Source: Actinokineospora auranticolor (GTDB taxonomy: Bacteria; Actinomycetota; Actinomycetes; Mycobacteriales; Pseudonocardiaceae). From it: a stretch of DNA of 64,000 nucleotides. The position numbers were made by a program, and so were the translations under genes. The stretch is from positions 4,786,024-4,850,023 of the forward strand of contig NZ_CP154825.1 in NCBI RefSeq assembly GCF_041897805.1, given 5' to 3'. The first letter of the stretch is position 1. Each line of letters opens with the position of its first letter. The notes beneath the pieces were generated by a model. The model was given only the letters and a program-made list of their open reading frames with translations. It was not told where the DNA came from and did no database searches. Shown here in pieces: positions 15,563 to 48,009 of this stretch.

Positions 15563-15894
15563 CGGTGCTCCCGACCTGGGCCCGCCGGGTGGTTGACGAT
15601 GTCGCCGCCGATCACGCCCTGCGCGATCCCGCCCCCGGACGCCGTGATGGTCTGGGTCGGCGCGGGCGCCCGCCGGGACTGCGCCAGGGTCACGACCAGC
15701 GACACCAGCCCCAGCACGAGCGACGCGCCGCCGATGAACATGCTCACCACGCTCGCCTGCGAGTCCCGCTCGTCCAGTGGCAGCCGGAAGTACCCGACCA
15801 GCGCGCGGACCAGCCACACCCCGGCCACGACCACCACCGCTGTGGCGACCGCCGCGCCGATCACCCAGACCCGTCTCCGGTTCGCCACCCGCAC
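15559..15894 (-). CDS. Small 2-TM membrane protein whose C-terminal tail repeats the NTPase N-terminal motif
   Basis: 111 aa with a GTG start. Two hydrophobic helices, then …ITASGGGIAQGVIGGDIVNHPAGPG at the C-terminus. Its stop overlaps the NTPase start (GTGA). Confidence 0.6.
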   Translation of the reverse strand: MRVANRRRVWVIGAAVATAVVVVAGVWLVRALVGYFRLPLDERDSQASVVSMFIGGASLVLGLVSLVVTLAQSRRAPAPTQTITASGGGIAQGVIGGDIVNHPAGPGREHR

Positions 15895-16106
15895 CTCCGG
15901 CCGTCGTTGTCTCGATCATGCACGGTTCGCGCGCGCCGGTGGGCGGTATGCGCGGAACGCACCCGCGCGTTCGAGTGGTCGGGATTCCCGGGCCGGTCGG
16001 GAAACACCCCCCGAACGGCCCAAGCGCCTGGTGCGCGGTCCGGCGCAAGTGGTTCCGCGCTGTGGACGCGGGTTCCGCGCGCGGCGGATCGTGCGAGCAT
16101 CGGGGG

Positions 16107-17282
16107 ATGTCCGCGATCTCGGTACCCGGCGAAGACCGGTTCGCGTCCAGTACGGCGATGATGCTGCGCGCGGTGTTGCGCCACGGTCCGCTGTCGCGGC
16201 GGGCACTGGGGCGGTTGGTCGGCATGAGCGGGTCGACGATGACCCGGCACAGCGCGGTCCTCTTGGACACCGGGCTGATCCGGGAGACCGAGGGCAGGCC
16301 CGACGGGCGGGTGGGCAGGCCGCACGTGCCGCTCGCGGTGAACCCCCGGGCCTGCGAGGTGATCGGGGTGCACCTCGCGCACGAGTTCGGCACCGTGGCG
16401 GTGGCCGACCTGTGTGGACGGATCATCCGCCAGCGGCGCGTGGAGTACCGCGGCGATTCCCCCGGCGCGGCCGTCGACTCGGTGGCCGCGGTCGCCGCGC
16501 GGTGGGTCGAACCCGGGCGGACCAGGGCGGTCGGTGTCGCCACCGGCGGCTGGGTCGACGCCGACCAGGGCGTGCTGGTCTCGCACCCGTCCCTCGGGTG
16601 GCGGTCGGTGCCGGTGCGCGACATCGTGGCCAACCGGGTCCGGCTGCCGGTGCACGTGGACAACCACACGCGCGGTCTGGTGCAGGCCGAGGGGCTGTTC
16701 GGTGACGTCGACCCCGAGCAGTCGGTGCTGTTCCTGTTCGTGGGCAACGTGGTCGACGCCGCCGTGCGCACGGGACGGGAGGTGCACCGGGGGCCGCGCT
16801 CGGGCGCGGGGGTGGTCGCCCACCTGCCGGTCGGCGACCCGGCGATCCCCTGCCCCGACGGGCACACCGGCTGCTTCGAGGCCACGGTGGCGGACCAGGC
16901 GTGGGCGCGGCGGGTGTCGGGCGCGTCGTTCTGGGACCTGCTGGGCAAAGCCCAGGGCGGGGACGCGCGGGCGCGGGAATTGTTCGTCGCGCGCGGCGGG
17001 ATCGTCGGCCGGGCCGCCGCGCTGTTGTACGACATCGTCAACCCCGATGTGCTGATCGTCGCGGAATTGGGCGCCTCGGCCATCCCGGAATGCCTTGACG
17101 CGATCCGCGCCGAGGTCGGTCGGCGGTCGCTGCTGTGCTCCTCCCCCACCACCTCGATCCGGGCGAGCGCGTTCCCACCTGCCGAGATCCTGGCCGTGTC
17201 GGCGGCCGGGGTCGCTCTGGCCGAGGTGTACGCGGATCCGATAGGGGCGGTGCGGACTTCCCACTTCATGGGCCGGAGTTAA
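16107..17282 (+). CDS. ROK-family transcriptional regulator
   Basis: N-terminal HTH (LSRRALGRLVGMSGSTMTRHSAVLLDTGLIRE) followed by a ROK sugar-kinase-like fold (VGVATGGWVD, LPVHVDNHTRGL, CPDGHTGCFEA zinc motif). Start at MSAISVPGE…. The track's N-terminal extension is rejected. Confidence 0.8.
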   Translation: MSAISVPGEDRFASSTAMMLRAVLRHGPLSRRALGRLVGMSGSTMTRHSAVLLDTGLIRETEGRPDGRVGRPHVPLAVNPRACEVIGVHLAHEFGTVAVADLCGRIIRQRRVEYRGDSPGAAVDSVAAVAARWVEPGRTRAVGVATGGWVDADQGVLVSHPSLGWRSVPVRDIVANRVRLPVHVDNHTRGLVQAEGLFGDVDPEQSVLFLFVGNVVDAAVRTGREVHRGPRSGAGVVAHLPVGDPAIPCPDGHTGCFEATVADQAWARRVSGASFWDLLGKAQGGDARARELFVARGGIVGRAAALLYDIVNPDVLIVAELGASAIPECLDAIRAEVGRRSLLCSSPTTSIRASAFPPAEILAVSAAGVALAEVYADPIGAVRTSHFMGRS

Positions 17283-25433: not shown

Positions 25434-26090
25434 TCACGCGGTGAAGGCGTCCCACTCCAGGTTCTCGATCTTCGTGAGGTACGCCAGACGGGCGGGCTTG
25501 TCGGCCGCCACCCACACCTCGCGCGCGGTCGCCGTTTCGGCTGTCTCGCCCGGTCCGGGGTTCGGTCCGCCGAAGGCGAGCAGCCCGTCCGCCGCGTACA
25601 GGCGATGGCCGCGGGCGGGCCAGCGCCAATCAGGCATCGGCAGCGGGTGCACCGGCGCCACGATCCCCTCCCACTGTGCCTGCGACACAACGCAGGCACA
25701 GGCACCGAACGCCGAGCCCATCACCGCCTCGAACACCGCGACGTGGAGCAGGAACGTCGACAGCGGCTCGCCCGTGGGCTGCCACACCGCGCCGTCGACG
25801 TTCTCCCGGTCATAGACCGGCGGGTCGTCACCGTCGGCATCGATCGCCCACGACCACGCCCCCTGGTTCTCCTCCCAGAAGACCAGCTTGCCGTCCTCGA
25901 GCCAAGGCTCGCTCAGCACGCGGTTCTGGGTGGCGACCGGCGTCGACCAGCGAGAGGTCACCTCGAACCAGTCGCGCAGCGGCCCAGGAGCGCGGCTGCC
26001 GTCAAGCACGGACTGCCGGTCCGGTGGGCCATACCAGCGGGTCAGGAACCGCGCCAGGCTGTCGCCGTCGACAGGGAAAAGTTCACGCAC
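25434..26090 (-). CDS. Hypothetical protein downstream of the giant AAA protein
   Basis: Tentative GTG start at 26090, 17 nt after the giant gene's stop. Trp-rich sequence (…LVFWEENQGAWSWAIDADGDDPPVYD…). No confident family; faint resemblance to SMI1/KNR4 (SUKH)-type proteins. Confidence 0.4.
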   Translation of the reverse strand: MRELFPVDGDSLARFLTRWYGPPDRQSVLDGSRAPGPLRDWFEVTSRWSTPVATQNRVLSEPWLEDGKLVFWEENQGAWSWAIDADGDDPPVYDRENVDGAVWQPTGEPLSTFLLHVAVFEAVMGSAFGACACVVSQAQWEGIVAPVHPLPMPDWRWPARGHRLYAADGLLAFGGPNPGPGETAETATAREVWVAADKPARLAYLTKIENLEWDAFTA

Positions 26091-26107: not shown

Positions 26108-29100
26108 TCAGCGGTGGCCCGCGGCCCGGTCGATGGCGGCTTCGACGCGGTCGGCGAGGAGGCCGACGGCGCCGACGGCGCGGCTGATGGGGTCGTCGGT
26201 GCCGCCGCCGAGGGCTTGGGTGCGGAGGTAGGCCTTCTTCACTTCCGACCAACGTTCGGCCTGGTCCGGGGTCAGGCGGCCGCGGATCTCGGCCAGTTTC
26301 AGGAGGTTGGCCTCGGCGCCCGCGGTCAGGGTCTGGGCCTCGCCGCGGTAGTGGTCGTCGATGACGGCCTCCAGCTCGTCCTCGTTCATCGCCGGGACGA
26401 TGCGCTCGGCCAGCTTGTTCATGTTCCGGTAGGAACCCTGGAGGCCGAACGGCGGTTCCGTGCGGGACGGGTCCGCCTGGGCGGCCGAGGCGATGTAGGC
26501 GCGGTTGTTGTCCAGCACCACCCGCTGGACGCGGAGGAGTTTGCGCAGGACCGAGAGGATTTGCTCGACCTCGACGCCGGAGTACGGGTGGGCCAGCTGG
26601 TCCGCCCGGGCGCCGTCATCGCCCTGGGCCAAGCGGACGAACAACTCCACATCGGACCGCTCGCGGGTCGACAGCGGGGCCAGGACCGGGTTCGAGGTGA
26701 GCGAGTTCTCCACGTAGCTCAGCGCGAACAACTCTTCCCGGCCCGACAGCACGTCACCCAGGTTCCACACGTCCGCGCGGTTGGACAACATGTCCGGGAC
26801 GCGGAAGCGCTTACCGGACTCGGTGTACGGGTTGCCCGCCATGCACACCGCGAATCGCTTGCCGCGCATGTCGTACGTCCGGGTGCGCCCGTTCCACACC
26901 CCCTCGACGCGCCGCTGGGCGTCGCACAGGGAGATGAACTTCTGCAGCAGTTCCGGGTTGGTGTGCTGGATGTCGTCGACGTACAGCAGCGCGTTGTTGC
27001 CCAGCTCCAGCGCGAAATTGATCTTCTCGACCTCTTGCCGGGCCGTGGCATTGGGCGCGTCGGCCGGGTCGAACGACGTCACGCCGTGGCCCAGCGCCGG
27101 GCCGTTGACCTTGACGAAGACCAGGCCGAGGCGGTTCGCGACGTACTCCATCAGCGTCGTCTTGCCGTAGCCGGGCGGCGAGATCAGCAGCAGCAGGCCC
27201 ATCTGGTCGGTGCGCTTGTCCACTCCGGACGCGCCGAGCTGCTTGGCCAGGTTGTCGCCGATCAGCGGCAGGTAGACCTCGTCGAGCAACCGGTTGCGGA
27301 CGAACGCGCTCATCACCTTCGGCCGGTACTCGTCCAGCCGCAGCCGCCGCTTCTCCGCGGCGACCAGCTCGTTGCGCCTGCGCTGGTAGTCGCGGAAGCC
27401 GGGGACGCGCTCCAGCCGGAACCGCCGGGTGCGGTCCAGCAGGTCGTCCAGCCGCACGGGCAGCGCGCGGTCGACGACCCGGGGGTGCGCGCCGAGCAGG
27501 CCGTCGACCCGCTCGGCCAACGCCGCGGACGAGTCGTGCCGGGCCAGCAGGTCACCGCACAGCTCCAGCGCCACCGCTTCTGGAAGGTCCACATCGGACA
27601 TGTCGGTGGTCGCGAGGAACGCGCCCAACCACGCCGAGACCAGCTGGTGGCGCGCGTCGAGGTCGTCGCCGAGCGCGCGCAGGTCCTCGGCGTACGAGGT
27701 GTCCTTACCGCCGAGGGCGCGGTGGAACCGCTCGACCACGGTCCGCGCGCCCGCGCTGGTGACGAACCCGAACGGCGCGGACGCGAGTTCCTCGAACAGG
27801 TACTCCCCCACGGCCGCGTCGGGCGCGACCCGCAGGAAACCCGCCACCGCCGTGGTCAGTTCCCCGCACAGCTCGGCGATCGCGGCGGGCGGACCGAAGG
27901 CCGCGCGGGCCCTGGCCAGCGAGGACGCCCGCACCGACCACCGGTCCCTGGCGGCGGACTCCGCGCCGAACGCCCAGAACAGCTGCGCGGCGGCGCGAGC
28001 GGCGGGCGGGTAGCGCAGCAGACCCGCGCCCGCGTGCAGCCGCAGCAGGACGTCCAGGATCAGGGCCGCGTCGTGGTCGTGCACACCGCGCTCGTAGCCC
28101 TCGTCGTACCGCGACTCGGCGGCGGCGCGCACGGCCGCGAGCAGACCGCCGGACTCGACGGCCGCCGCGTGCAGCGCGTCCAGGTCACCGGTGGTCAGGA
28201 TCGCGGCGGCCAGGTGCTCGGCGCGGTAGACCTCGGGCGACTCGGAGACCAGCAGCTGGTCCCAGTACCCGCGCGTCTGGGCGAAGTCCGGGTCGGTGAC
28301 GGCCGCGCGGTAGTCCGTGCCGGTCACCGCGAAGGCCATGCCGCCGTCGTGCGGGACCAGGGTCAGGTCGAGCGGCTGGGTGTTGACGGCGAAGGCGTGC
28401 TTGCCGAACCGCAGGGTGTCGCCGCCGTCGGTGAACAGGTCGAGCCGGTCGCGCAGCGCGCGCCCCGCCTCCTGCCGGGCGGCCTTGAGCCTGCCCGCGA
28501 GCTCCTCGGCCCGCACCTGGTCGCCGATCTCGCGCAGGTCGTCGGTGACCGCGCGCAGCTTGGCGACCATCGGGTCCGAGGCGAAGTAGGTGTTGATGTC
28601 GTCCAGCGAGGCCAGAGTAGACAGTCTGCGTTGGACGCTGCCGAGCACCCGGTCCGCCGACTCGACCAGCCGGTCCGCGCGGCGGGCGCGCTCGTCGAGC
28701 AGCGCCTGCTTGCGCGAGGAGAACACCTCGTAGACGTCCGAGCGCTTCTCGCCGAGTTCGGTGAGGAAGTCGTCGAACTCGCCGAACCGCGACTCCAGGT
28801 TCTCCAGCCGGAGCATGAGCCTGCCGAGCTGGTCGTCGCAGCGCTGCGGCGTGTCGGCGACCGCGAGCGCGCCGGTGACCGCCTGGCCGAGCAGCGCGAA
28901 CTCGGCCGCGAACTCCGCCCGCCCCTCGGTGGCCAGCAGCTCCCCGCGCCGCGCGGCGAGCGTGGCGCGGGCCCGGTTGACCCCGCCCAGCACCTCGCCG
29001 ACGCGTTCCAGGATGGCGGTGCGCGCGGTGGCGTCGGCGATGTCGAGCGAACCGACCACGTCGGTGACGATCTCCAGCCCCTCGGCCTGTTCCGCGAGCC

Positions 29101-30991
29101 GCTCCCCCACCGGTCCGGCCTCGGCCACCGTGCCGATGGCCGCCGCGTCGGCCACGAGCCGGTCGACCTGCTCGTGGTAGCCCGCGAAGGCGTCCGCGCC
29201 ACCGAGGAAGGCCACCGCTCGCTGCCCGGCGGAGACCAGCTCGGCGGCCAGCTCCGCGGTCAACGAGTCCACTGTGGCCAGATCGAGGTACCGCCGCTCC
29301 CGCAGGGTGACGAGCCTGCCCTGGGCCCGCCGCAGGTCCGCGAGCTGGGCGACCCACCCGTCCGCCGACTTCGGCGCCGCGCCGCGCGCGGACCGCACCA
29401 GCGCGCCGACCTGGGCACCGGCCTCGGCGAGGGCGTCGGCGGCCTGGCGGGTGAGGGCCTGCACGGTCTCGAACTCGTCGAGCACCTGCTCGGCGGTGGA
29501 ACGCACCTGGGCCAGCGGTGTGCGCAGGTCACCGAGGTCGGCCTCGCCGAGCCAGTGGTAGTGGTCGAACACGCGCGCGCAGGTCGTGATCAGCGCCTCG
29601 AACACCGCGGTCGACGGGGCCATGTCGCCGACCATCTGGGCCACCGACAGGCAGTCGGAGATGCCGCGCACCAGGTCCGCGTTGCCGACCCGCTCCAGCG
29701 GCCCGGTGCCGACGGGCCGCGCGGCGGCGTAGGTGTCGGACAGGTAGGGCGTCTGCCAGACCTGCATGGGGTGCACGCGGGTGGGTTCCTCGGACGTCGC
29801 GCGGAACACCACGAGGGTGCCGTCGTCGAACAGCGAGTACCCGTGGCAGACCAGCGGGTTGGCCACTTCCTTGCGGATCACGTTGTAGGGCAGCAGAAGC
29901 GTGCGGCCCTCCTCGCGGGCGTGGAAGGCGTAGAGGACGTCCTCGCCGTTGGGCGAGCGGATGACGCGCTCGTACTCCAGGCTCGCCACCTCGGTGTCGA
30001 ACGTCTTGTGCACGCCGGTGGCCAGGTAGTAGCCGCCGGGGAAGATGATCCCCTGGTCCTCGGGGAGCCTGCGGCAGGCCTGGCCGATGCCGTCGAGGCG
30101 GACGACCGAGCGGGCGCGGGTGTCGAAGACCAGGTGCCGCCACTCGGTCTCGTTGTAGGGGCGGATCCGGAGGAGGATCAGCGAGCCGACCTCGGCGTAG
30201 TACACGTCCGCGTCGGCGAGGCTCTGCAACGGCTCGGCGACCGGTTCGGCGTAGATGCCCTCGCCGGTCTCGGTGTTGTTCTCGACCTTGACGGTCAGGT
30301 CGCCGCGCACGGTCTCCACGAAGACCTTGCCCAGGATGGAGATGTGCGGGAACCGGCCGAGCACGTGGTCGTCACGCGTGGTCTCGACCCACTCGAAGTC
30401 CTGCGCGGGCGGGAACACGTGGTCGCGTTCGCCGCGGTTGTCCGCATAGGACACCGCGCCGCCGGGGGCGATGTTCCAGCGCAGGACCTTCACGTCCTCG
30501 GTGCGCGGCCCGGTCTGGAACACCGCGAGCAGCTTGCCCTCGACGTGCCGCAGCTGCAGCAGCCTGGTCTCGCGGTAGTACCGGTACAGCTCGCCGAAGT
30601 CGCGCCGGAAACCCTCCCCGCGCAACAGCTCGGGCAGCTCGTCCGGCCCCGCCGCCTCGAAGCGGAACGCCTCGCCGTCGCGGGCGAAGCGGTGCAGGGA
30701 GAACACGTCGTCGACCGAGGTCTCCGGCTTGAGGCCGATGAACACGTTGTAGCCGAACAGCATCAGCCCGTCGACGGAGATGATGTCGCGCGGGACGCAG
30801 TTGTTCTCCGTGCGGATCCGCTCGGTGCCGACCAGCCGCAGCTCGGTGCCGCCGAACACGCGCAGCCGGTCGTCGTTGAGCGCCTCGGCCCGCCGGGCCA
30901 GCTCGGCGGCCTGCTCGCCGAGCCGGGCCCGCAGGACCTCGTAGGTACCGGCGTCGAGCGCGGGCCCGGTGGTCTCCGTGGTGTCGGTCAT
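26108..30991 (-). CDS. Giant (1627 aa) protein with C-terminal dynein-related/MoxR-like AAA (AAA_5) ATPase module
   Basis: Walker A LLLISPPGYGKTTLMEYV, Walker B ALLYVDDIQHTNPE, and AAA_5-type VCMAGNPYTESGKRFRVPDMLSNRADVW. A long α-helical/coiled-coil middle region and an N-terminal ~450-aa β-rich region. First Met is MTDTTETTGP. Confidence 0.8.
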   Translation of the reverse strand: MTDTTETTGPALDAGTYEVLRARLGEQAAELARRAEALNDDRLRVFGGTELRLVGTERIRTENNCVPRDIISVDGLMLFGYNVFIGLKPETSVDDVFSLHRFARDGEAFRFEAAGPDELPELLRGEGFRRDFGELYRYYRETRLLQLRHVEGKLLAVFQTGPRTEDVKVLRWNIAPGGAVSYADNRGERDHVFPPAQDFEWVETTRDDHVLGRFPHISILGKVFVETVRGDLTVKVENNTETGEGIYAEPVAEPLQSLADADVYYAEVGSLILLRIRPYNETEWRHLVFDTRARSVVRLDGIGQACRRLPEDQGIIFPGGYYLATGVHKTFDTEVASLEYERVIRSPNGEDVLYAFHAREEGRTLLLPYNVIRKEVANPLVCHGYSLFDDGTLVVFRATSEEPTRVHPMQVWQTPYLSDTYAAARPVGTGPLERVGNADLVRGISDCLSVAQMVGDMAPSTAVFEALITTCARVFDHYHWLGEADLGDLRTPLAQVRSTAEQVLDEFETVQALTRQAADALAEAGAQVGALVRSARGAAPKSADGWVAQLADLRRAQGRLVTLRERRYLDLATVDSLTAELAAELVSAGQRAVAFLGGADAFAGYHEQVDRLVADAAAIGTVAEAGPVGERLAEQAEGLEIVTDVVGSLDIADATARTAILERVGEVLGGVNRARATLAARRGELLATEGRAEFAAEFALLGQAVTGALAVADTPQRCDDQLGRLMLRLENLESRFGEFDDFLTELGEKRSDVYEVFSSRKQALLDERARRADRLVESADRVLGSVQRRLSTLASLDDINTYFASDPMVAKLRAVTDDLREIGDQVRAEELAGRLKAARQEAGRALRDRLDLFTDGGDTLRFGKHAFAVNTQPLDLTLVPHDGGMAFAVTGTDYRAAVTDPDFAQTRGYWDQLLVSESPEVYRAEHLAAAILTTGDLDALHAAAVESGGLLAAVRAAAESRYDEGYERGVHDHDAALILDVLLRLHAGAGLLRYPPAARAAAQLFWAFGAESAARDRWSVRASSLARARAAFGPPAAIAELCGELTTAVAGFLRVAPDAAVGEYLFEELASAPFGFVTSAGARTVVERFHRALGGKDTSYAEDLRALGDDLDARHQLVSAWLGAFLATTDMSDVDLPEAVALELCGDLLARHDSSAALAERVDGLLGAHPRVVDRALPVRLDDLLDRTRRFRLERVPGFRDYQRRRNELVAAEKRRLRLDEYRPKVMSAFVRNRLLDEVYLPLIGDNLAKQLGASGVDKRTDQMGLLLLISPPGYGKTTLMEYVANRLGLVFVKVNGPALGHGVTSFDPADAPNATARQEVEKINFALELGNNALLYVDDIQHTNPELLQKFISLCDAQRRVEGVWNGRTRTYDMRGKRFAVCMAGNPYTESGKRFRVPDMLSNRADVWNLGDVLSGREELFALSYVENSLTSNPVLAPLSTRERSDVELFVRLAQGDDGARADQLAHPYSGVEVEQILSVLRKLLRVQRVVLDNNRAYIASAAQADPSRTEPPFGLQGSYRNMNKLAERIVPAMNEDELEAVIDDHYRGEAQTLTAGAEANLLKLAEIRGRLTPDQAERWSEVKKAYLRTQALGGGTDDPISRAVGAVGLLADRVEAAIDRAAGHR

Positions 30992-30997
30992 CGGGTG

Positions 30998-33004
30998 CTA
31001 CAGGCTCGCGGCGAGGGCGGCCACCGGCTTGTCCGCCACCCCTAACCGCTGCGCGTGCCCGAGCAGCTCCCGGAGCTTGCCGGACTCGCCGCCGTCCGAG
31101 TTGATCATCTTGAGCAGCAGCGCCGACACGGTCAGGTTCTTCACGTCCTCGCTGCCGAGCGAGCCGAGCAGGCCGCGCAGGTCGTCGGTGAAGCTCGACG
31201 AACCGTCCAGCCACGGCCGGGCCAGCGTGCGCGCCGTCTCCGAGTGGTCCAGGAAGCCGTCGACGCTCTTGCCGAGCGACACCGCGCCGACGATCTTGTC
31301 GAAGAACATCGACTCGCCGCCGACGATGTCGATGTCGGCCTTCTCCAGCCCGGCGGCCAGCACCATCGCCTGCGCCTCGGCGACCTCGCGCTGCACGTCG
31401 ATCCCGCGCAGCCGCACCGAGGTGTCCGCCTCCAGCCGGAGCCGGTACTCCTCGTGCTCGCGGGTCGCGTCGTCCATCGCGGCGAGCGCGCCCGCCTTCT
31501 CTGACAGGCCCTCGGCCTCGCCCTTGAGCTTCTCCCGGATCGCGGCGGCCTCGACCATCGCCTTCTCGCGGGCGACAGCGGCCTCCGCGCGACCCACCTT
31601 CTCGATCGCGGCGGCGTCGCGCTCGCGCACCTGCACCTCGGCGAGCCCGGTCGCGGCGGCCCGGGCCTGCTCGCCCTCGGCGAGCCGGATCTGCGCGCGG
31701 GTGTCCAGCTCGGCGGCCTGCTGGCGGGCCTCGGCGAGCACGATCTCCTCGCGGGCCTTGTGCTTGGCGGCGGCCTCGGCCGCCTCCGCGGCCTTGATGT
31801 CCTTGACCAGGTTCTCCTGCGCGGCGGCCTCGGCGGCGATCACCAGCGCCTGGCGCCCGCGCTCGGCCTCCTCGACCGCGCGCAGCCGCTTGATGTTCTC
31901 CTCCTGCTCGGCCACCGTCCGGTCGACCGCGATCCGCTCCCGGACGACCTCGGCGACGGCGCGCTTCTCGCCCTCGACCTCCTTGTCCTTGGCGATCCGC
32001 GACAGCTCGGTCTCGCGCTCGCGGGAGATGACCTCCAGCAGCCGGTCCTTCTCGATCCGCTCGGTCTCGATCGCGATGACCCGCTCGCGGTTCTTCTGCG
32101 CGACGGCGATCTCGCGGGCCTGGTTCTCCGCCTGGATGCCGAGCGACTCGTCGGTGCGCAGGTTCGCGCCCTGGGCCTTGAGCCGCTCCTCGGCCTGCAC
32201 CTTCTGCGTCTCGGCCTCTTCCCGGGCGCGCATGGTGTCGATCTCGCGGCGCTGCTTGATCTCCGCGTCCGCCTGCCTGCGCTCGAGTTCGAGGATGGCC
32301 TCCCGGGCGTCGACGTTCTGCCGGGTGATCTCCTTCTCCTCGTTGCGCCGGTACTCGTTGGTGCGCACGTGCTCGACCGCGGTGAGTTCGGTGATCTTGC
32401 GGATGCCCTGGGCGTCGAGGATGTTCGCCGCGTCCAGCTGCGCCATCGGCGTCTGCTCCAGGTAGTCGATCGCCGCGTCCTCCAGGCTGTAGCCGTTGAG
32501 GTCGGTGCCGATCACCCGGATGATCTGGTCGCGGAACTCGTCGCGCTTGGTGTAGAGGTCGACGAAGTCCAGGTGCTTGCCGACGGTCTTGAGCGCCTCG
32601 GAGAACTTCGCGTTGAACAGCACCTGCAACGTCTGCTCGTCGCTGGCCCGCGCGGTGCCGATCGCCTGCGCCACCTTGATGACGTCCTCGACGGTCTTGT
32701 TGACCCGCACGAAGAACGTGATCCGGATGTCGGCGCGGATGTTGTCCCGGCAGATCAGCCCCTCGGTGCCCGCCCGGTTGATCTCGATGGTCTTCACCGA
32801 GATGTCCATGACCTCGGCCTTGTGCAGCACCGGGAGCACGACCGCGCCGGTGAAGGTCACGTCGACCTTCTTCACCTTCGACACGATCAGCGCCTTGCCC
32901 TGGTCGACCTTGCGGAACAGCCTGCCGATCAGGAACAGCAGGACGATGACGACGAGGAGGATGACGCCGAGCAGCACACCCAGCCCGGTGGAGATGACGT
33001 CCAT
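30998..33004 (-). CDS. Flotillin-family SPFH/band-7 protein (YqiK/FloT-like)
   Basis: N-terminal TM, then SPFH domain (…EINRAGTEGLICRDNIRADIRITFFVRV…). Long EA-rich coiled coil. 668 aa. Confidence 0.85.
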   Translation of the reverse strand: MDVISTGLGVLLGVILLVVIVLLFLIGRLFRKVDQGKALIVSKVKKVDVTFTGAVVLPVLHKAEVMDISVKTIEINRAGTEGLICRDNIRADIRITFFVRVNKTVEDVIKVAQAIGTARASDEQTLQVLFNAKFSEALKTVGKHLDFVDLYTKRDEFRDQIIRVIGTDLNGYSLEDAAIDYLEQTPMAQLDAANILDAQGIRKITELTAVEHVRTNEYRRNEEKEITRQNVDAREAILELERRQADAEIKQRREIDTMRAREEAETQKVQAEERLKAQGANLRTDESLGIQAENQAREIAVAQKNRERVIAIETERIEKDRLLEVISRERETELSRIAKDKEVEGEKRAVAEVVRERIAVDRTVAEQEENIKRLRAVEEAERGRQALVIAAEAAAQENLVKDIKAAEAAEAAAKHKAREEIVLAEARQQAAELDTRAQIRLAEGEQARAAATGLAEVQVRERDAAAIEKVGRAEAAVAREKAMVEAAAIREKLKGEAEGLSEKAGALAAMDDATREHEEYRLRLEADTSVRLRGIDVQREVAEAQAMVLAAGLEKADIDIVGGESMFFDKIVGAVSLGKSVDGFLDHSETARTLARPWLDGSSSFTDDLRGLLGSLGSEDVKNLTVSALLLKMINSDGGESGKLRELLGHAQRLGVADKPVAALAASL

Positions 33005-33008
33005 GCTT

Positions 33009-33635
33009 CTAGTCCCTTGGCCGTGGTTGGTCGCGGGGGTCCGCGAGGGGGGTCAGGTCGACCGGGGTGATCCAGAAGAACTCGCCCACCGGGTCGTAGT
33101 CGTGGATGACGGCGGTGCTGCCCGCCCGCAGCGGCTCCACTCCGGGCTGCCGGACCTGGATGACGGCGGAGGACCCGTCGACCGAGGTCACCTCGGCCTG
33201 CCCGAAGGTCCGGTCCACCGACCCGGTGCGCACGACGCACACCAGCCCGACGAAGTCCGCCCGCTTGGGCCCGGCGTCCTCCGGGAACGCCTTCCGCAAC
33301 GGGATGACGACAAGCCTGGTGACCAGCAGCGCGACCACCAGCACGACGACCAGGGCCACCGCGCGGGCGATGACCAGGAGGGCGCCCGCGAGGCCGAGGT
33401 CGTCGAGGAGCACGCCGGAGACCAGCGCGAGGAACCAGGCCACGACCGTCACCACGGACACGGCGACGGTCAGCGGCACGCCGCCCAGCCCGATGCCGTC
33501 GGGGTCCGGGGCACCGGGAAGGTCTATCTCGGACAGCCCGACGAGCACCAGCAGCCAGTAGCCGACGACCACGACGAGCAGGAAGCTGAACAGCACGGCC
33601 GGGAAGCTCAACGCCGCCCCGACGAACTCACCCAT
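33009..33635 (-). CDS. NfeD/YqiJ-like membrane protein (flotillin partner)
   Basis: Three or four TM helices, then a C-terminal OB-fold-like soluble domain (…GQAEVTSVDGSSAVIQVRQ…VIHDYDPVGEFFWITP). Strong RBS GAGGAGG. Lies immediately upstream of flotillin, as in the yqiJ–yqiK / nfeD–floT pair. Confidence 0.7.
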   Translation of the reverse strand: MGEFVGAALSFPAVLFSFLLVVVVGYWLLVLVGLSEIDLPGAPDPDGIGLGGVPLTVAVSVVTVVAWFLALVSGVLLDDLGLAGALLVIARAVALVVVLVVALLVTRLVVIPLRKAFPEDAGPKRADFVGLVCVVRTGSVDRTFGQAEVTSVDGSSAVIQVRQPGVEPLRAGSTAVIHDYDPVGEFFWITPVDLTPLADPRDQPRPRD

Positions 33636-34184
33636 CCAGCCTCCTCGTCACTGAGGGGAAATTACCCGGTGAACACCTCCCGGGTGGGGGGTTTCGGAAA
33701 ATTCGCTCAGCAGGCGAAGGATCGGTGGATCGTGTCCGTTTGTTCCGATTTCCCGACGCGGAGAGATCCTGTCCGGTCGCGGTCCGCCAAGGGCGAACGA
33801 CGCGCTTGCCGCGAATCGGTTTCACGTCATCGAACTGTCCGGAGTGGAGCACCCGGCGCGAGCCGGGCGGAACCACCCGGCTCGCGGGTGCGGGCGAGCC
33901 AGGTGGTGGCGTCCGATGGGCGGACGCGGGTGTCGATCGGCTCGTGCGCGGTGGGTCGCTCCCGACGCCTACGGTGTGGCCACTGTGGACACCGCGAACA
34001 GCGTGACGACCCGGTGGCGGCCCGCGCCCGCGCACCCCAGCCCGGTTCCGGTCGGCGACAAGACATGGCGTTCATTTTCCGATGGGAACCACCATTGTCC
34101 CGACCGGGTGGCGAGCAGGTGGTCGGACGAGGCGTCCGGCACCGACCGGGACCCGCTCCTTTCGCGTGGACTATCGCCGCCCGG

Positions 34185-35530: not shown

Positions 35531-38500
35531 TCAGGACGACGGCGACTCCGCGGCGGCGCGGGCCGCCGGGTGCGTGTCGGCCAGCGGCGGCAGCGCGTAC
35601 GCGTGCAGCCTGCCCGCCTGGATCACGACCCGGATCCACTCGTCGGAGTGGTCGCGGATCAGCAGCGACGCCCGGTGCTCGCGGGTCGCGGCCAACGCCC
35701 GGCGGTCCGCGGGTGGCATCGGGCTGAACTCCGACTCGCTGTGCCGGATCCAGGCCTGGGTGTCGGCCTTGATCCCGTCGGCGAGGTCGCGCAGCGCCTG
35801 CTCGTGGGTCACCCCCGACTCGCGGGCCCGCCAGTACCGCAGCACGCGGTGGGCGTGGCCGACCATGCCGGTGGTGACACCGCCGCTGGTGAGCACGTGC
35901 CCGTTGCCGAAGGAGTCGCCCGCGACCACGGCGTTGGCCGCGACCACCGCGTCCGAGCCGATCCGCTCCACGAGGCGGAACAGCTTTGGCCCGTAGGTGA
36001 GCTGGATCTTGGCCAGCTCGGCCTTGGGGATCTCCAGCAGGTGCGCGGTCTGCTCCAGGAAGAAGTCCCGCATCAGCAGCTGGTGGGCGGCGAAGTACTT
36101 CGCGGTGTCCTTGGCGGTGCCCTCCGGCACCAGCCCCGCGAGCACCGGGTCGAAGGTCTTGAACTCCGGCACCTCGATCAGCACCCAGCCGACCTCGGCG
36201 TCGTCCTCGTGCCCGATCGCGATCTGGCGCGTGGTGTAGGCGGTGCCGTTGCGGTCGAACTCGGTGGACACCCGCCTGCGCACCCGGCTGTCGATGAACA
36301 CCTCGATCAGCCCGGCCAGGTAGTCCGCCTGCGCGGGCACCGGGCCGTTGCCGTCGCCGTGGTCGACGCGGACGTCGCGCTGGGTGAACCCGAGCCTGCG
36401 CGCGTCGGCGCCGGACTGGCCCTCGGCGATCACGATCAGACCGGGCACGCCCAGGTCGACGATCTCGGCGTTGTCCACCGCGACGCGGCGGAACTTGCCC
36501 TTGTGGTCGAGGCTGCGCACCATCTCCAGGCGCACCCGCAGCCTGCCGTCGGGCTGCCGCTCGAACCCGGTGGCGCCCTTGGCCGCGCGCCGCGGTTCGG
36601 TGAGCACGCGGTGGCTGGTGAACAGCCGCACGCGGGGCTCGCGGCCGGACGCGAGGTCCATGGCCTCCACGGCCTCCAGGTACCGGCGCAGGATCACCAG
36701 CACCTCCTCGGCGCCCGCGAGGAACGTCGGCCGGTCCGCCAGCACCTCGGCGAGGTCGCGGCCGAGCCGCGACGGGTCCGGGCCGGTGGGCGGCGTCATG
36801 CCGCCCAGGTCGGCGACGACCCGGTGCGGCCTGCCGTCGAGCCAGCGGTCGTCGACGTGCTCCTCGTGCAAGACCACGCCGCCGACGTGCGACTCCAGGT
36901 CGAACCCGCTGACCACCTCGTCGGCGGAGGCGTCGCCCGCCTCGGTCTCGGTGCTGTAGAGGCACTCCGCGAGCCGGAACAGGCTGCCGTCGCCGCGCTT
37001 GGGCACGCCGTCGGCGCCGTAGCGCTCCAGCATCAGCTGGTCGATGACGCCGAGGTGGTGGTAGATGTCGGCGTTGAGGTTCCAGTGCATGACCCCGTAC
37101 GACGGGTCGCCGCGCAGCTCGACACCGACGGCCCGCTTGCCCTCCGCGACCGACCACAGCATGCCCATCATCCCGGTGCCGCCGAGCCCGAGGGCCAGGT
37201 AGTCCGGGTCGCGCACGCCCGCGAGGTTGTGGTCGTGCGCGTCGACCGCGGTGTCGTCCAGGGACTTCGGCGCCGTCTTCGGCACCGCGGGCTGCACGAC
37301 GGTCATGCCCAGCACGGCGGCGACCAGCACGATCCCGGCCCCGACGAGGAACGCCAGCCGGTAGCCGGAGGTCAGCGCCTCCAGCGCGGGCACGCCGTCC
37401 GCCAGCGCGTCGCCGGTGCGCGCGCTGGACATCGCGGCCAGCACGGCCAGGCCGAGCGCGGGGCCCATCTGCTGGGTCGTGTTGACCAGACCGGAGCGCA
37501 CACCCGCGTCGCTGGTGGTGGCGTCGGCCATGGCGACCGTGATCACGGCGGGGAAGCACAGACCCGCGCCGGTGCCGAGCAGCAGCATCACCGGCAGCAC
37601 GTCCACCAGGTAGTCCCCGTCGACCGGGACCCTGGCGAACAGCGCCAGGCCCGCGACCATGAGGAGCATGCCCGGCACCAGCACGGCCTTGGCGTCGACC
37701 TTGTCCACCAGCTTCGGCGTGACCTTCAGCGACAGCGTCGCGATGGCCGCCGCGGCGGGCAGGAACGCCAGCCCGACCTCGGCGACGCTGAACCGCAGCA
37801 CGTTCTGCATGTACAGCGCGCCGAGGAAGAAGACCCCGGCGAACCCGGCCACCATCAGCGTCTGCACCAGGTTCGCCCAGCCGACGTTGCGGGCGCGGAA
37901 GATGCCCAGGGGCACCAACGGGTCCCGGGCCCGCGCCTGGTGCGCGACGAAGCCGAGCACCAGCGCGGTGGACACCGCGCACAGCACGATCGTGCGCGTC
38001 GAGCCCCAGCCGGTCTCCCCGGCCTGCACGATCGTGTAGACCCACAGCGACAGGCCCAGGGTGATCAGCAGACCGCCCAGCACGTCCGAGGTCTGCGCGT
38101 CGGTGTCGGCGGTGTTCTCGTCGAGCAGCCGCAGCGCCGCGACGATGGTCGCCGCGCCGAGGGGCAGGTTGACGAAGAAGATCCAGTGCCAGTTGATCGC
38201 CTCGGTGAGCGCGGCACCGGCCAGCAGGCCGAGCGAGGCGCCCGCCGCGGCCACGAAGGAGTAGACGCCGACCGCGCGGGCCTGCTCCCTCGGGCGGGGG
38301 AACATCGTCACGATCATGCCGAGCACCACCGCCGAGGCGGCGGCCCCGCCGATGCCCTGCGCGGCCCGGGCCGCGATCAGCACGGCCTGGCTGTTCGCCA
38401 GCCCGCAGGCCAGCGACGCGACCGTGAACACGGCCAATCCGCTGATGAACAGGCGTTTGCGACCTAAGAGGTCACCGAGTCGACCCGCCAGCAGCAGCAA

Positions 38501-38718
38501 CCCGCCGAAGGGGATCAGGTAGGCGTTGATCACCCACGCCAGGTCGGTCTGGGCGAACCCGAGGTCGGTCTGGATGGACGGCAGCGCGACGTTCACCACG
38601 GAACCGTCGAGGATGATCATCAGGGTGCCCGCGCAGAGCACGACGAGCGCCAACTGGCGCTCGCGCAGGCCGCGCAGCACGGGGACGGGCCGCAGCGCGG
38701 CCCCGGTCATCGCGTCCA
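35531..38718 (-). CDS. Apparent fusion: DHA2-type MFS transporter (N-terminal ~480 aa) plus FAD-dependent oxidoreductase domain (C-terminal ~590 aa)
   Basis: MFS signature LCAGTLMIILDGSVVNVALPSIQTDLGF with 14 predicted TM helices. It runs in frame, with no stop, into RDPDYLALGLGGTGMMGMLW (FAD GxGxxG)…AGDSFGNGHVLTSGG. The start overlaps the upstream paralog's stop (TGATG / GTGA). Confidence 0.6.
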
Positions 38719-40860
38719 TCACGCCCCCGCGTTCAGCGCCGGGGCGGCCAGGTCCGCCTGGCCGTTGCCGGTGGTCATCCCGGCCTCGTCCGCCATCACG
38801 TCCGAGGACTCCCCGGCCACCTCCCCCGACCCGCGCAGCGCGGGGTGGACCTGGCTGAGCGGGGGCAGCGACAGCGCGTGCGTGCGGCCGCTGCGGATCA
38901 CCAGGCGCCGCCAGTCCGACGGGTCGAGCGGCACCAGCGAGTGCCGGTGCCTGCGGGTGGCGTCGATCGTGTTCGCGCGGGCCTCGGTGGACTTGCCGCT
39001 GGCCGCGGAGATCCGCTCGATCCGCTCGGCGCCGAAGTTGATCGGCACGGCCTGGCTGAACTCCTGGGCGCTGACGTGCAGCCACCCGTCGGTGTCCGCC
39101 TTGATGCCGTCGGCCAACCCGCGCACCGCGGTCGGCTGGTCGGCGCCCGCCGCCCGGGCCTCCCAGTAGCGCAGCACCCGGGCGCCGTGGCCGACCATGC
39201 CGGTGATGGCGCCGCCGCTGGTCAGGAAGTGGCCGTTGCCGAAGGAGTCGCCCGCGACGACGCCGTTGGCCGCCACCAGCGCGTCCGCGCCGACCTGCTC
39301 GACCAGGCTGAACAGCTTGGGGCCGTAGGGGATCTGCACCGACTCCAGTTCCTCGCGCGGGATCTCCACGATGTGCGAGACCTGCTCGAGGTAGAAGTCG
39401 CGCAGCAGGTACTGGTACGCGGCGAAGTACTCCGGCGCCTTGCGGTCGGTGCCCGGGGGCACCAGTCCGGCCAGGATCGGGTCGAAGGTCTTGAAGTCGG
39501 GTACCTGCACCAGGATCCAGCCCACCTCGGGGTCGTCCTGGTGGCCCACGGCGATCTGCCGCACCCAGTACTCGTTGCCCTGCTTGTCGAACTCCGACGC
39601 GATGCGCCTGCGCAGCCGCCCGTCGACCAGGACCTCCATCAGCCCGGCCAGGTAGTCGGCCTGGGCCACCACGGGGCCGCGGCCGTCCTGGTGGTCCACC
39701 TTGACCTCCTCCTGGCGGAAGCCGAGGCGGGTGGCGTCGGTGCTGTCGAAGCCCTGCGCGATCATGAACAGCTCGGGCACGCCGAGGTCGAGCACCTCGG
39801 TGCCGGGCACCCGCACGCGGCGGAACTTGCCCTTGTAGTCCAGCTCGCGGATCTGCTCGATCCGCACGCCCATCCGGCCGTCGCGCTGCGGCGTGAAGCC
39901 CTCGTCGCGGCGCAGCCAGTTCAGGTAGCCGCCGTCGTCGTTCGGCGTCACCACGCGGTGGCTGGTGAACAACCGGACCCGGGGCCGCGCGCCGCGCTCG
40001 AGGTCCATCCGCTCGATCGCCTCGAGGTAGCGGCGCTGGAGGATGAGCACCTCGGAGGCGCCCGCCTGGAACGTGGAGGGTCCGTCGAGGACCTCCACCA
40101 TCGGCCTGCCGATCTTGGACGGGTCGTGGTCGGTCGGCGGCAGCGCGGAGTCCACGACGGTCACCACGCGCTGCGGTCGGCCGTCGGCCCAGCGGTCGTC
40201 GATGAACTCGGTGTGGTGGATGATGCCGGACACGTGCGCGTCCTCGCCGATGTGCGAGTCGAGGAAGCCGGTGACGACCTCGTCCGCGGCGACCGCGCCC
40301 GCGGCGGTGTCGGGGTGGTAGAAGCACTCGGCGAGCAGGAACGGGGTGCCGTTGCCGCGCTTGGGCACGCCGTCGGCGCCGTAGCGCTCCAGCATCATCT
40401 GGTCGATCAGTCCGAAGTGGTGGTACAGGTCCTCGCGGATGTTCCAGTGCACGCCGAGCGACGGGTCGCCGCGCATCTCCACGCCGACCGCGCGCTTGCC
40501 CATGGCGACCGTCCACAGCATCGCCATCATGTTGGTGCCGCCCAGGCCGAGCGCGAGGAAGTCCGGGTCGCGGACCAGCGCGGCGTCGGCGGCGTCCGCG
40601 GCGGCGGAGTTGTCCACGGTGGTGCCGTCCAGGTCACCGGGCACCGGGGCGGCCGAACGGGCCAGCTGGACGAGGAAAGCCGCGATCAGGGCGGCGAAGG
40701 CGGTACAGGCCCCGATGAGCAGCGCGGTGCGGGCGGTGCCCGCTTGCACAAGACCCGCGGCCCCAAGAGCGACAGCAACGGAGGCGAGCGCCCCCAGTAC
40801 CGCCTTGCGCGCGGGCGTGGCCCACGCGCGTCTCCAAGCAGGCCTTGCGGACTTGGCCAT
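38719..40860 (-). CDS. Membrane-anchored FAD-dependent oxidoreductase (paralog of the C-terminal half of the downstream gene)
   Basis: 713 aa. N-terminal hydrophobic helices (TALLIGACTAFAALIAAFLV), then RDPDFLALGLGGTNMMAMLW…AGDSFGNGHFLTSGG. About 70% identical to the downstream flavoprotein domain across its length. Confidence 0.7.
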   Translation of the reverse strand: MAKSARPAWRRAWATPARKAVLGALASVAVALGAAGLVQAGTARTALLIGACTAFAALIAAFLVQLARSAAPVPGDLDGTTVDNSAAADAADAALVRDPDFLALGLGGTNMMAMLWTVAMGKRAVGVEMRGDPSLGVHWNIREDLYHHFGLIDQMMLERYGADGVPKRGNGTPFLLAECFYHPDTAAGAVAADEVVTGFLDSHIGEDAHVSGIIHHTEFIDDRWADGRPQRVVTVVDSALPPTDHDPSKIGRPMVEVLDGPSTFQAGASEVLILQRRYLEAIERMDLERGARPRVRLFTSHRVVTPNDDGGYLNWLRRDEGFTPQRDGRMGVRIEQIRELDYKGKFRRVRVPGTEVLDLGVPELFMIAQGFDSTDATRLGFRQEEVKVDHQDGRGPVVAQADYLAGLMEVLVDGRLRRRIASEFDKQGNEYWVRQIAVGHQDDPEVGWILVQVPDFKTFDPILAGLVPPGTDRKAPEYFAAYQYLLRDFYLEQVSHIVEIPREELESVQIPYGPKLFSLVEQVGADALVAANGVVAGDSFGNGHFLTSGGAITGMVGHGARVLRYWEARAAGADQPTAVRGLADGIKADTDGWLHVSAQEFSQAVPINFGAERIERISAASGKSTEARANTIDATRRHRHSLVPLDPSDWRRLVIRSGRTHALSLPPLSQVHPALRGSGEVAGESSDVMADEAGMTTGNGQADLAAPALNAGA

Positions 40861-41378
40861 TGTGCACAGTCCTTCGCGTCAGGAACCGGTGACGAACGCG
40901 CCCGAGTGGACGCGCGGGGAGTCGAAAATGAGTCACCAACCGGTCGGCGGCAGGTGCCGTGAGAGGTCAACTCTCCGCGCTGCCAACAGGTGGGCGAAAA
41001 CCACAGGTCACCTCCCCTACTCCGAGTATAGGCAGCGCTCCCCGACTGTCGCGTGTGTTTCGCGCAAACAACCCGACTGTTACACACGGGACGGCGTTGG
41101 TCCAAAAGGACGCAACCGCGCGGATTTCCGCCGAACGTCCTAACCGGTGCGGTCCAAGGAGAGCAGCGACACCGCCCCGGGTTTTCGCTATGTTGGGCCG
41201 CACCCGAGCGGCCTGGCGAAAAACCGGCGGTGACCATCGTCGACTGTCGAAATTGGCCTACCGGTTAACCGGGTAACGAATTCGCTTACCACCACGACGA
41301 CCCCAAGACGATCCACCGGTGACAATCGGCCGCACGCCCCGGCCGCGATCCCCGGCAGCAGCGCGCGGCCCGACCGGC

Positions 41379-41398
41379 GACGGGTCGCGCGACCCGTC
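41379..41398. promoter_or_regulatory. 20-bp perfect palindrome in the kamA leader (candidate operator or leader hairpin)
   Basis: GACGGGTCGC|GCGACCCGTC, flanked by repeated CCGGCGACGGG. Lies about 65 nt upstream of the kamA ATG. Confidence 0.3.
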
Positions 41399-41462
41399 CG
41401 GCGACGGGCGCGGTGCCCGGGCGGTGTCCCGCCACGTCCCTCCGAGAGATTCGAGTAGGCGC

Positions 41463-42428
41463 ATGACTGAAGCTCGCTTCGCGGAAAAGACCACGCCGTA
41501 CCTGCTGGAACTGGCCGAGCGCAGCGACGCCGTCCGCAAGATGTACGTCTACGACCCGGCGCACGAGGACATCCCCGCCGACATCGAACGGGACCTGCTC
41601 AGCGAGAAGGCCAACACCGCCGTGCCCGGCGGGGTGCGCAAGTTCGACGGACGCCTGCTGGTACTGCTCTCGTACACCTGCGGCGCCAACTGCCGCTACT
41701 GCGAGCGGCAGGACCGGGTCGGCGTCGGCCTCGACCGCCTGGGGCGGTTGGGGACCGCGCAGATCGACACCATCGTCGACTACGTCAAGCAGGACGGCGA
41801 GCTGCACGACATCATCGCCAGCGGCGGCGACCCGCTGATCAACCCCAAGGGGTTGGAGTACCTGTTCACCTCGCTGGCCGAGGTCGAGCACGTCAAGGTC
41901 ATGCGGATCCACACCAGGTTCCCGGTGCAGTCCCCGGGCCAGGTCAACCTCGACCTCATGCGCAAGCTGGCCACCTTGCGGCCGACGATGTACCTGAGCC
42001 TGCACATCTCCCACCCGGACGAGCTGACGCCCGAGGTGGAGGACCTGATCGCCCAGTTCCGCGCGATGGGCTACCTCCTCATCTGCCAGAGCGTGTTCCT
42101 CAAGGGCGTCAACGACGACGTCGAGGTCCTGTACCGCCTCTACACCAGGCTGTTCCAGCTGGGGGTGCGGCCGTACTACCTCTACCACTGCCAGCGCATC
42201 CCGACCACGGCCCGGTTCGAGATGGACCTGCGCGACGAGGTGGCGATCATGTCGCGGCTGCGCGAGCGGCTCGACGGCCTCGCCTTCCCGCAGCACGTCA
42301 TCGACATGCCCGCCGCGCGCGGCAAGGTGCTGGTCCCGACGAACCACTGGGACTTCGACCTGGGGCACGTCACCGACTTCGACGGGCTGACCCTCAGCAC
42401 GGAGACCTGGAAGGCGCGCGAGGACTGA
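41463..42428 (+). CDS. KamA-family radical SAM protein (lysine 2,3-aminomutase-like)
   Basis: Radical-SAM CxxxCxxC motif LLSYTCGANCRYCER. KamA-type ASGGDPL motif and C-terminal Zn-binding region. Start at MTEARFAEKTTPYLL. Confidence 0.85.
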   Translation: MTEARFAEKTTPYLLELAERSDAVRKMYVYDPAHEDIPADIERDLLSEKANTAVPGGVRKFDGRLLVLLSYTCGANCRYCERQDRVGVGLDRLGRLGTAQIDTIVDYVKQDGELHDIIASGGDPLINPKGLEYLFTSLAEVEHVKVMRIHTRFPVQSPGQVNLDLMRKLATLRPTMYLSLHISHPDELTPEVEDLIAQFRAMGYLLICQSVFLKGVNDDVEVLYRLYTRLFQLGVRPYYLYHCQRIPTTARFEMDLRDEVAIMSRLRERLDGLAFPQHVIDMPAARGKVLVPTNHWDFDLGHVTDFDGLTLSTETWKARED

Positions 42429-42463
42429 GCGGTGGGCGGAAGGGGGAGCGGGGTGGGAGACCG

Positions 42464-43936: not shown

Positions 43937-43985
43937 CCGCGCCGGGAGCGCGGGACGTGGGTTTGACGAGTCGACAGGAGAACCG

Positions 43986-48006: not shown

Positions 48007-48009
48007 CGG

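Follow-up and report, generated by a model that had tools for sequence, protein, structure and literature searches.

What does a giant ATPase do in an operon with a flotillin? The question is raised by three adjacent genes in a 64,000-nucleotide (nt) stretch of the Actinokineospora auranticolor genome (contig NZ_CP154825.1, positions 4,786,024 to 4,850,023 of the forward strand), which was analysed as a whole and is referred to here as the window. All three genes lie on the minus strand: the first of the operon (33009..33635) encodes a membrane protein of 208 amino acids (aa), the second (30998..33004) a 668-aa SPFH protein of the flotillin/YqiK family, and the third (26108..30991) a giant, predicted soluble ATPase of 1627 aa. 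An initial annotation, made from the sequence alone, had read them as a canonical yqiJ/nfeD–floT pair followed by an ATPase that could represent a membrane-remodelling or defence-associated module. We find that the three genes form a unit that is conserved across phyla, and we favour, with moderate confidence, the view that the trio serves in envelope stress or membrane remodelling, with a flotillin scaffold as the target of the ATPase.

Three genes in one operon

The list of open reading frames (ORFs) returned the three genes at exactly the coordinates, and on the strand, that the initial annotation had given for them. Their third-position GC content of 0.96–0.99 (0.96 in the 208-aa gene), in a genome with a GC content of 72% across the window, marks them as real genes. 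The stop codon of the 208-aa gene is separated from the flotillin start codon by 4 nt (TAG aagc ATG), and the flotillin stop codon from the start of the giant gene by 6 nt (TAG cacccg ATG), one fewer than the 7 nt first reported. Because these gaps span only 4 and 6 nt, the trio is almost certainly co-transcribed. The flotillin-like and giant proteins were 100% identical to Actinokineospora auranticolor database entries named 'flotillin family protein' and 'DNA repair ATPase', respectively.

Gene order is conserved across phyla

Conservation of the adjacency between the giant gene and the flotillin gene had been set beforehand as a refuting test, and the linkage was found to hold far beyond the source genome. 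Scanning one genome per species for the giant gene gave at least 591 loci, and the neighbourhoods of the best 80 were extracted; four of these had no upstream DNA, leaving 76 informative loci. All 76 had a flotillin gene immediately upstream in the same orientation, and a YqiJ-like gene was detectable before it in approximately 60 of these 76 close loci, which represent many actinomycete genera, Myxococcus, Corallococcus, deltaproteobacterial metagenome-assembled genomes (MAGs) and one MAG labelled Clostridia. Furthermore, nine distant representatives were analysed, with 26–46% identity and a locus GC content of 24–48%, and the order YqiJ-like gene, flotillin gene, giant gene was retained in eight of the nine lineages. 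Profiles of the flotillin-like protein (A1) and of the 208-aa protein (A3) confirmed these eight distant triads; E-values ran from 1e-81 to 1e-203 for the flotillin and, for the small protein, from 2e-8 to 1e-58. In the one remaining lineage, a subfamily with 26% identity (L083 and L084), the giant gene (8001–12830 and 3026–7855, respectively) had no flotillin or YqiJ-like neighbours; upstream of it lies a gene with a PRiA4_ORF3 domain, and downstream one that, judged from its Pfam domains, encodes an HflX-like GTPase.

Clustering of all ORFs from the 80 loci yielded no fourth conserved gene, a regulator in Streptomyces excepted. This gene, assigned by eye, encodes a protein of approximately 350–430 aa that looks PucR/CdaR-like, and was found near the operon in 30 loci, all from Streptomyces (within L033–L078), at approximately 3.3–5.4 kilobases (kb) in locus coordinates; in 27 of the 30 it is upstream of the YqiJ-like gene and divergent. 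It may be a Streptomyces-specific regulator of the operon.

The flotillin-like protein and its small partner

The sequence of the 668-aa protein by itself matched no Pfam or NCBIfam family, even at E-values up to 10, and its identity as a flotillin was therefore established by profile comparison. Profile A1, built from its homologues, aligned with E. coli YqiK (hhalign 99.5%, E 1.2e-22, 29% identity, 408 columns) over the SPFH region and as far as column 446, which supports membership of the flotillin/YqiK family and bears out the proposal that the middle gene encodes a flotillin homologue. In addition, PF01145 (Band_7) is recorded in many relatives at 77–84% identity, and the homologue carried by the megaplasmid pQBR103 matched this family with an E-value of 9e-11. 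PDB searches with the single sequence or the profile gave no sequence match. Hydropathy analysis marked a single hydrophobic segment (aa 1–34), a predicted N-terminal anchor, which is followed by the SPFH domain, a long coiled coil rich in Ala, Glu and Arg (21%, 19% and 13% of residues 220–530, respectively) and a conserved C-terminal region (aa 560–668).

The 208-aa protein contains three hydrophobic stretches and then a small C-terminal beta domain (FVGLVCVVRTGSVDRTFGQAEV...). It matched no Pfam or NCBIfam family at E-values up to 10, with YqiJ_N, YqiJ_OB and NfeD all unrecognised, and BLASTP against E. coli YqiJ returned nothing. By hhalign, the narrow profile A3 reached 0.5% against YqiJ and 0.35%, that is, no similarity, against the E. 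coli NfeD protein YbbJ; a PDB search with the YqiJ-like profile gave no match. Profile A3 aligned with a full-length Hymenobacter homologue that NCBI names 'DUF1449 family protein' (hhalign 99.7%, E 1e-25), and DUF1449 is the former name of the YqiJ family (YqiJ_N/YqiJ_OB). Moreover, a broad profile of 19 orthologues taken from distant operons (A6) aligned with E. coli YqiJ over the second and third transmembrane segments and the OB-fold region (hhalign 90.8%, E 1.2e-6), and one relative of the 208-aa protein showed a sub-threshold YqiJ_N match. These comparisons point to a probable remote homologue of the YqiJ/YuaF-type (NfeD-like) flotillin partners. The yqiJ/nfeD label for the first gene is accordingly weakly supported, since the similarity to YqiJ is remote and appears with the broad profile only, and there is none to YbbJ; in the phrase 'canonical yqiJ/nfeD–floT pair' the flotillin stands, but 'canonical' exaggerates how readily the two are recognised, as neither protein matches Pfam on its own sequence. 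Both proteins are predicted to be membrane-anchored, and the giant protein, in which hydropathy analysis found no transmembrane-like segment, to be soluble.

Architecture of the giant protein

The N-terminal part of the giant protein had been described as belonging to no obvious family. Pfam assigns it two: DUF3686 (PF12458; aa 30–479, E 7e-221, 734 bits against a cut-off of 25) and DUF7902 (PF25472; aa 600–683, E 1e-31, 109 bits against a cut-off of 26), so that the N-terminal two thirds belong to named families. The DUF3686 region (29555..30904, minus strand, aa 30–479) comprises an N-terminal helix (aa 16–46) and then a beta-rich domain of approximately 28 strands (aa 52–413). Long helical bundles follow, with helices of up to 58 residues (28427..29554, minus strand, aa 480–855; DUF7902 at 28943–29194), and then a beta unit (aa 875–897), a second helical domain (aa 900–1148) and a linker to the ATPase (together 27302..28426, minus strand, aa 856–1230). 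An AlphaFold2 model of aa 1–1190 had a mean predicted local distance difference test score (pLDDT) of 83.5 and a predicted template modelling score (pTM) of 0.48; the beta-rich domain was mostly at pLDDT 80–92, and the helical bundles of the model span aa 437–851, between the beta-rich domain and the small beta unit. In a Foldseek comparison of the beta-rich domain with the PDB, nearly all matches were propeller proteins (the DCAF1 WDR domain, prolyl oligopeptidases, paraoxonase, Vps18, IFT-A and Elp1), albeit at modest E-values (4e-5 to 1e-3) and low TM-scores. In the models, the N-domain thus resembles a beta-propeller and the helical arms resemble spectrin, so that the giant protein appears as a propeller-like head joined by long spectrin-like helical arms to a motor of the MoxR class.

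The predicted motor is a MoxR-like AAA+ module (26282..27301, minus strand, aa 1231–1570), and the initial assignment of this part to the AAA ATPases was borne out: all the quoted motifs were found, aa 1267–1392 match Pfam AAA with an E-value of 7e-6 and AAA_5 with one of 2e-5 (25 bits, cut-off 22), and structure comparison placed the MoxR ATPases NorQ and CbbQ nearest among solved structures. The Walker A motif SPPGYGKTT lies at 27155–27181 (minus strand, aa 1271–1279), the Walker B motif LLYVDDIQH at 26963–26989 (minus strand, aa 1335–1343) and the motif VCMAGNPYTESGKRFRVPDMLSNRADVW at aa 1382–1409. The module also has a pre-sensor-1 beta-hairpin (aa 1361–1374), with Asn1387 as sensor-1 and Arg1405 as candidate arginine finger, and a conserved lid motif, FxLQGSYRNM (26411–26449, minus strand). 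The classical AAA clade and RuvB were considered as alternatives on account of PDB sequence matches confined to Walker A (NVL, Rix7, p97 and RuvB), and were set aside as structure comparison favoured MoxR. The model also contains a conserved 14-residue loop (GHGVTSFDPADAPN) ahead of helix 2, where DSSP assigns no hairpin.

The Walker B motif departs from the canonical MoxR form hhhhDE, carrying Asp in place of Glu (LLYVDDIQH), and both acidic residues, D1339 and D1340, are invariant in a set of 19 and in a set of 44 diverse sequences. Such an invariant Asp-Asp pair suggests slow, regulated, switch-like hydrolysis, not that of a fast unfoldase. It resembles the 'DDIQ' motif of DnaA-type proteins, which likewise suggests slow and regulated hydrolysis.

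The giant family is large, with more than 6,000 clusters at 90% identity and 1,408 matching clusters at 50% identity (E up to 1e-3). The full-length architecture of 1600–1900 aa is retained down to 26–30% identity, and across actinomycete orders the identity amounts to 72–81% over 1600 aa. Domain conservation was computed on 19 members that are 30–62% identical overall, and gave 69% identity for the AAA+ core, 42% for the propeller-like domain and 26–39% for the helical parts; the AAA+ motor is by far the most conserved part of the protein. The region at aa 856–1230 is conserved at 28–37% across the family and nearly gap-free, and the 19-member comparison contained essentially no indels along 1600 residues and no domain shuffling. 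This near-gapless conservation implies that the whole architecture is under constraint. NCBI names the giant family 'DNA repair ATPase', a label that Pfam shares; it has been applied to thousands of proteins and is probably misleading.

Companion genes and mobile elements

In other phyla, further genes join the operon. A PspA_IM30 gene is present in the operons of three distant loci (L087, L091 and L092), CesT/Tir-like or DUF2170 genes in those of L082, L091 and L092, and a TelA gene in those of L085 and L089. In Hymenobacter sp. DG25B (L094), the order is Tir chaperone, PspA, DUF1449, flotillin-like protein and 'DNA repair ATPase'. The suggestion of a membrane-remodelling or stress role fits these additions of PspA, CesT/Tir and TelA genes. 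The Actinokineospora operon is an abbreviated form that lacks the adjacent CesT/Tir-PspA dyad.

At the Marinibactrum halimedae locus (L082), a gene at 4679–5065, between the DUF2170 (YjfI-like) and YqiJ-like genes, encodes a 128-aa protein with a weak match to PspA_IM30 (E 4e-4) that scores 20.5 bits and so stays below the cut-off of 33.9, and this protein may be a truncated PspA-like helix protein.

The giant family was absent from 50,697 phage records and occurred in only 13 of 72,556 plasmid records, most of them from megaplasmids or chromids. The well-studied Pseudomonas fluorescens SBW25 megaplasmid pQBR103 carries the trio (L093, 86.4–103.3 kb), where genes for rhomboid, DUF2491, DUF350, DUF1190 and glutathionylspermidine-synthase-like proteins come directly before it. 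DUF2491 is found, as is a spermidine-synthase-like protein, in polyamine-linked phage-shock-protein (PSP) operons too (Ravi et al., PMC11237479).

A model for the trio and its alternatives

In the model that we favour, the flotillin and its YqiJ-like partner would, in the manner of other SPFH proteins, form an oligomeric dome or patch on the cytoplasmic side of the membrane. The giant protein would assemble through its AAA+ domain into a ring, probably hexameric and of approximately 1 MDa, that contacts the flotillin scaffold through the propellers and helical arms. Through ATP binding and hydrolysis, the ring could then build up, take apart or remodel the scaffold, or proteins contained in it, during membrane stress or repair. 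Partners such as PspA, CesT/Tir or TelA, if used in Actinokineospora, would be encoded elsewhere in the genome.

Several observations weigh against this proposal. Its steps, including the physical interaction of the gene products, are inferred, and a pTM of 0.48 leaves it uncertain how the domains of the long model are arranged. With Asp in place of the Walker B Glu, robust ATPase activity would not be guaranteed, and sequence reading between Walker A and Walker B revealed no evident canonical aromatic pore loop. No VWA/MIDAS partner was found among the neighbouring genes of the window, nor as a conserved fourth gene in the 80 loci, and no PspA, CesT/Tir or TelA gene was found near the operon or among the approximately 35 window proteins scanned. 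Furthermore, the L083 and L084 loci show that the giant ATPase family is able to exist outside the flotillin operon.

A more specific version, which we hold tentatively and regard as less than likely, is that the giant protein is a dedicated ATP-driven machine for assembly and disassembly of the flotillin lattice. The AAA+ ring would carry six arms, each consisting of a propeller and spectrin-like helices, and would grip the dome of flotillin and YqiJ-like protein so as to open, close or recycle it. The modelled layout, a propeller followed by helices, loosely recalls membrane-coat proteins, and coat-type proteins (IFT-A, a nucleoporin, clathrin and Vps18) are among the Foldseek matches. If this were true, the giant protein would be the first energy-consuming remodeller known for an SPFH scaffold, and bacterial flotillins would gain a defined biochemical cycle.

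Other explanations were also considered. In client-directed quality control, which seems rather unlikely, the flotillin and YqiJ-like protein would serve as a platform on which the AAA+ ring extracts, unfolds or matures membrane proteins held there, by analogy with HflK/C-FtsH or the prohibitin–m-AAA protease but minus the protease. Pfam detects no protease or other catalytic domain in the giant protein, no canonical pore loop is evident, and the operon has no conserved fourth gene that could encode a client, its invariant partners being the flotillin and the YqiJ-like protein only. The presence of PspA_IM30 in the same operon at L087, L091 and L092 and in Hymenobacter (L094) would suit a Vps4-like motor acting on PspA/ESCRT-III-type polymers, with PspA encoded elsewhere in Actinokineospora and the flotillin recruiting the machinery to damaged membrane; we judge this explanation improbable.

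Two further readings were weighed. An anti-phage or conflict system, in which the ATPase would sense infection and the membrane proteins would be the effectors, is suggested by a large multi-domain NTPase adjoining membrane proteins, by occasional megaplasmid copies such as that on pQBR103 and by a CHAT/WD40/TPR gene cluster 9–23 kb away in the window. A search of PADLOC-DB 2.0, however, gave no significant match, the only similarities being at the P-loop level to IetA and mad8 (E 0.002–0.01, approximately 30 residues), and the family is absent from phage records and rare on plasmids. It is also very highly conserved across actinomycete orders without domain shuffling, the flanking genes are ordinary metabolic and transport genes, and the companion genes in other lineages are envelope-stress genes. 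The earlier idea of a defence-associated module therefore found no backing in PADLOC matches, phage copies or the few plasmid copies, and we consider it very improbable. Scarcely credible, in our estimate, is that the giant protein is a true DNA repair ATPase whose adjacency to the flotillin has no functional meaning. All that speaks for it is the database name, together with a weak, sub-threshold Walker A similarity to RuvB that extends over approximately 45 residues around the P-loop and reaches 21 bits against a cut-off of 27; Pfam detected no nucleic-acid-binding domain or nuclease, the linkage across phyla is to membrane proteins, and the literature searched contains no mention of DUF3686 (PF12458) or DUF7902 (PF25472).

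Returning to an envelope-stress module, a dedicated and very highly conserved ATPase partner would make flotillin assembly and turnover, as well as membrane stress repair, accessible to experiment. The giant ATPase occurs in at least 591 species-representative genomes, with a motor approximately 69% identical across phyla, and its hosts include the tractable Streptomyces, Myxococcus, Proteus mirabilis, Vibrio campbellii and P. fluorescens (pQBR103), the megaplasmid constituting a ready genetic system for studies of function.

Surroundings of the operon

Upstream of the operon lies a non-coding stretch of 549 nt (33636..34184, minus strand, by sequence reading), which is presumed to be its promoter or regulatory region. 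This spacer, which separates the operon from the Na+/H+ exchanger gene, contains a GC-rich inverted repeat (33857–33915) whose 22-nt arms show 82% complementarity, while a 14-nt pair nested within it reaches 93%; the repeat could be a terminator of the exchanger gene or an operator. A scan for promoters and terminators found no sigma-70-type promoter in the 549-nt stretch and nothing in or around the operon, and Rfam likewise gave no match in or around the operon, the upstream stretch included. At the other end, an ORF of approximately 218 codons (25434–26089, minus strand) begins with a GTG codon 18 nt past the stop codon of the giant gene and may be co-transcribed with the operon; it has no Pfam match, and no homologue was found at that position in the 80 related loci.

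The genes on either side are unrelated to the trio: Na+/H+ exchanger and MFS transporter genes on the upstream side, and TetR, SnoaL and flavoprotein genes on the downstream side. Farther upstream, a protein of approximately 1055 aa (35531–38698, minus strand) has an MFS_1 match limited to its first 416 residues; the other 600 or so residues show a strong coding signal and no Pfam match, and the adjoining gene (38719–40860) encodes a 713-aa protein, also without a Pfam match.

Two clusters stand elsewhere in the window. A minus-strand group of large repeat-containing genes (3373–17269) includes those for a protein of 1104 aa that carries a CHAT protease domain at its C-terminus (3373–6687, minus strand), a WD40-repeat protein (6531–8387, minus strand) and an 1866-aa TPR_12/TPR_10 protein (11669–17269, minus strand). 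The combination recalls the nucleoside-triphosphate-dependent conflict systems of multicellular bacteria (Kaur et al. 2020). The region 41319–55078 has the appearance of an aminoglycoside- or aminocyclitol-type biosynthetic gene cluster, encoding three radical SAM enzymes (one B12-binding, one SPASM), a DegT/DnrJ aminotransferase and a GT4 glycosyltransferase, and further a GMC oxidoreductase, a TylF-like methyltransferase, a PIG-L deacetylase, a Zn-dependent alcohol dehydrogenase and a class-III aminotransferase.

Comparison with known systems

The first two genes resemble E. coli yqiJ-yqiK and B. subtilis yuaF-floT, in which a small protein with several transmembrane segments and a C-terminal OB-like domain is likewise encoded directly upstream of a flotillin, and the flotillins share the N-terminal anchor, the SPFH domain and an EA-rich coiled coil. 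Unlike the window operon, these pairs have no giant ATPase gene, and the sibD/ibsD locus comes next after yqiK in E. coli K-12; moreover, the similarity of the 208-aa protein to YqiJ is only remote.

The MoxR ATPases NorQ, CbbQ and RavA have approximately 250–500 aa and are paired with a VWA/MIDAS protein, whereas the predicted motor described here is fused to approximately 1230 N-terminal residues and has no VWA partner. It also differs from MoxR proteins in its Walker B motif, DD instead of DE, and the model gives no clear sign of the beta-hairpin that they have as an insert in helix 2.

As proposed for the trio, HflK/C-FtsH and the prohibitin–m-AAA protease pair couple an SPFH scaffold functionally to an AAA+ ATPase at the membrane. 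FtsH, however, is a membrane-anchored AAA protease of the classical clade, while the giant protein is predicted to be soluble and MoxR-like, and neither a peptidase domain (Pfam) nor a membrane anchor (hydropathy) of the HflK/C-FtsH type was found on it. HflK/C faces the periplasm, and YqiK-type flotillins are thought to face the cytoplasm. HflK/C-FtsH is a precedent for the cooperation of SPFH cages with AAA+ machines (PMC12048511), and the structure of a flotillin dome has been solved (bioRxiv 10.1101/2024.05.09.593390).

The closest counterpart is an operon identified by comparative genomics (Ravi et al., mSystems 2024, PMC11237479; bioRxiv 2020.09.24.301986), in which CesT/Tir-PspA occurs with three further proteins: a flotillin, an ATPase composed of a beta-propeller, a coiled coil and an AAA+ domain, and a three-transmembrane protein of the YqiJ/YuaF type. 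According to the same study, abbreviated operons with the flotillin, the YqiJ/YuaF protein and sometimes the ATPase are more widespread than the full form and may work with a PspA encoded elsewhere, and a Dokdonia example in its supplementary table has the same gene order (PMC11237479). Both the gene set and its abbreviated form had thus been described, contrary to the initial view that such an ATPase is not a described flotillin partner; literature searches pairing flotillin with MoxR or with anti-phage AAA+ proteins found nothing relevant.

The window operon shares with that of Ravi et al. the order of YqiJ-like protein, flotillin and propeller, coiled-coil and AAA+ ATPase, and differs in lacking the CesT/Tir-PspA dyad and a phospholipase D gene. 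The ATPase of the Hymenobacter operon is 44% identical to the window protein over 98% of its length, and that of L092, where the arrangement is as in Hymenobacter and PspA is present, is 34% identical; these two loci tie the description by Ravi et al. to the DUF3686 family. Their paper assigns the ATPase to no Pfam family and no AAA+ clade and reports neither a structure of it nor an experiment, and their grouping was reached independently of the present analysis. As the association has already been published, the value of our work lies in its confirmation and in a sharper description of the proteins, to which we add the assignment of the motor, from structural models, to the MoxR class, the Asp-Asp Walker B motif and the synteny counts.

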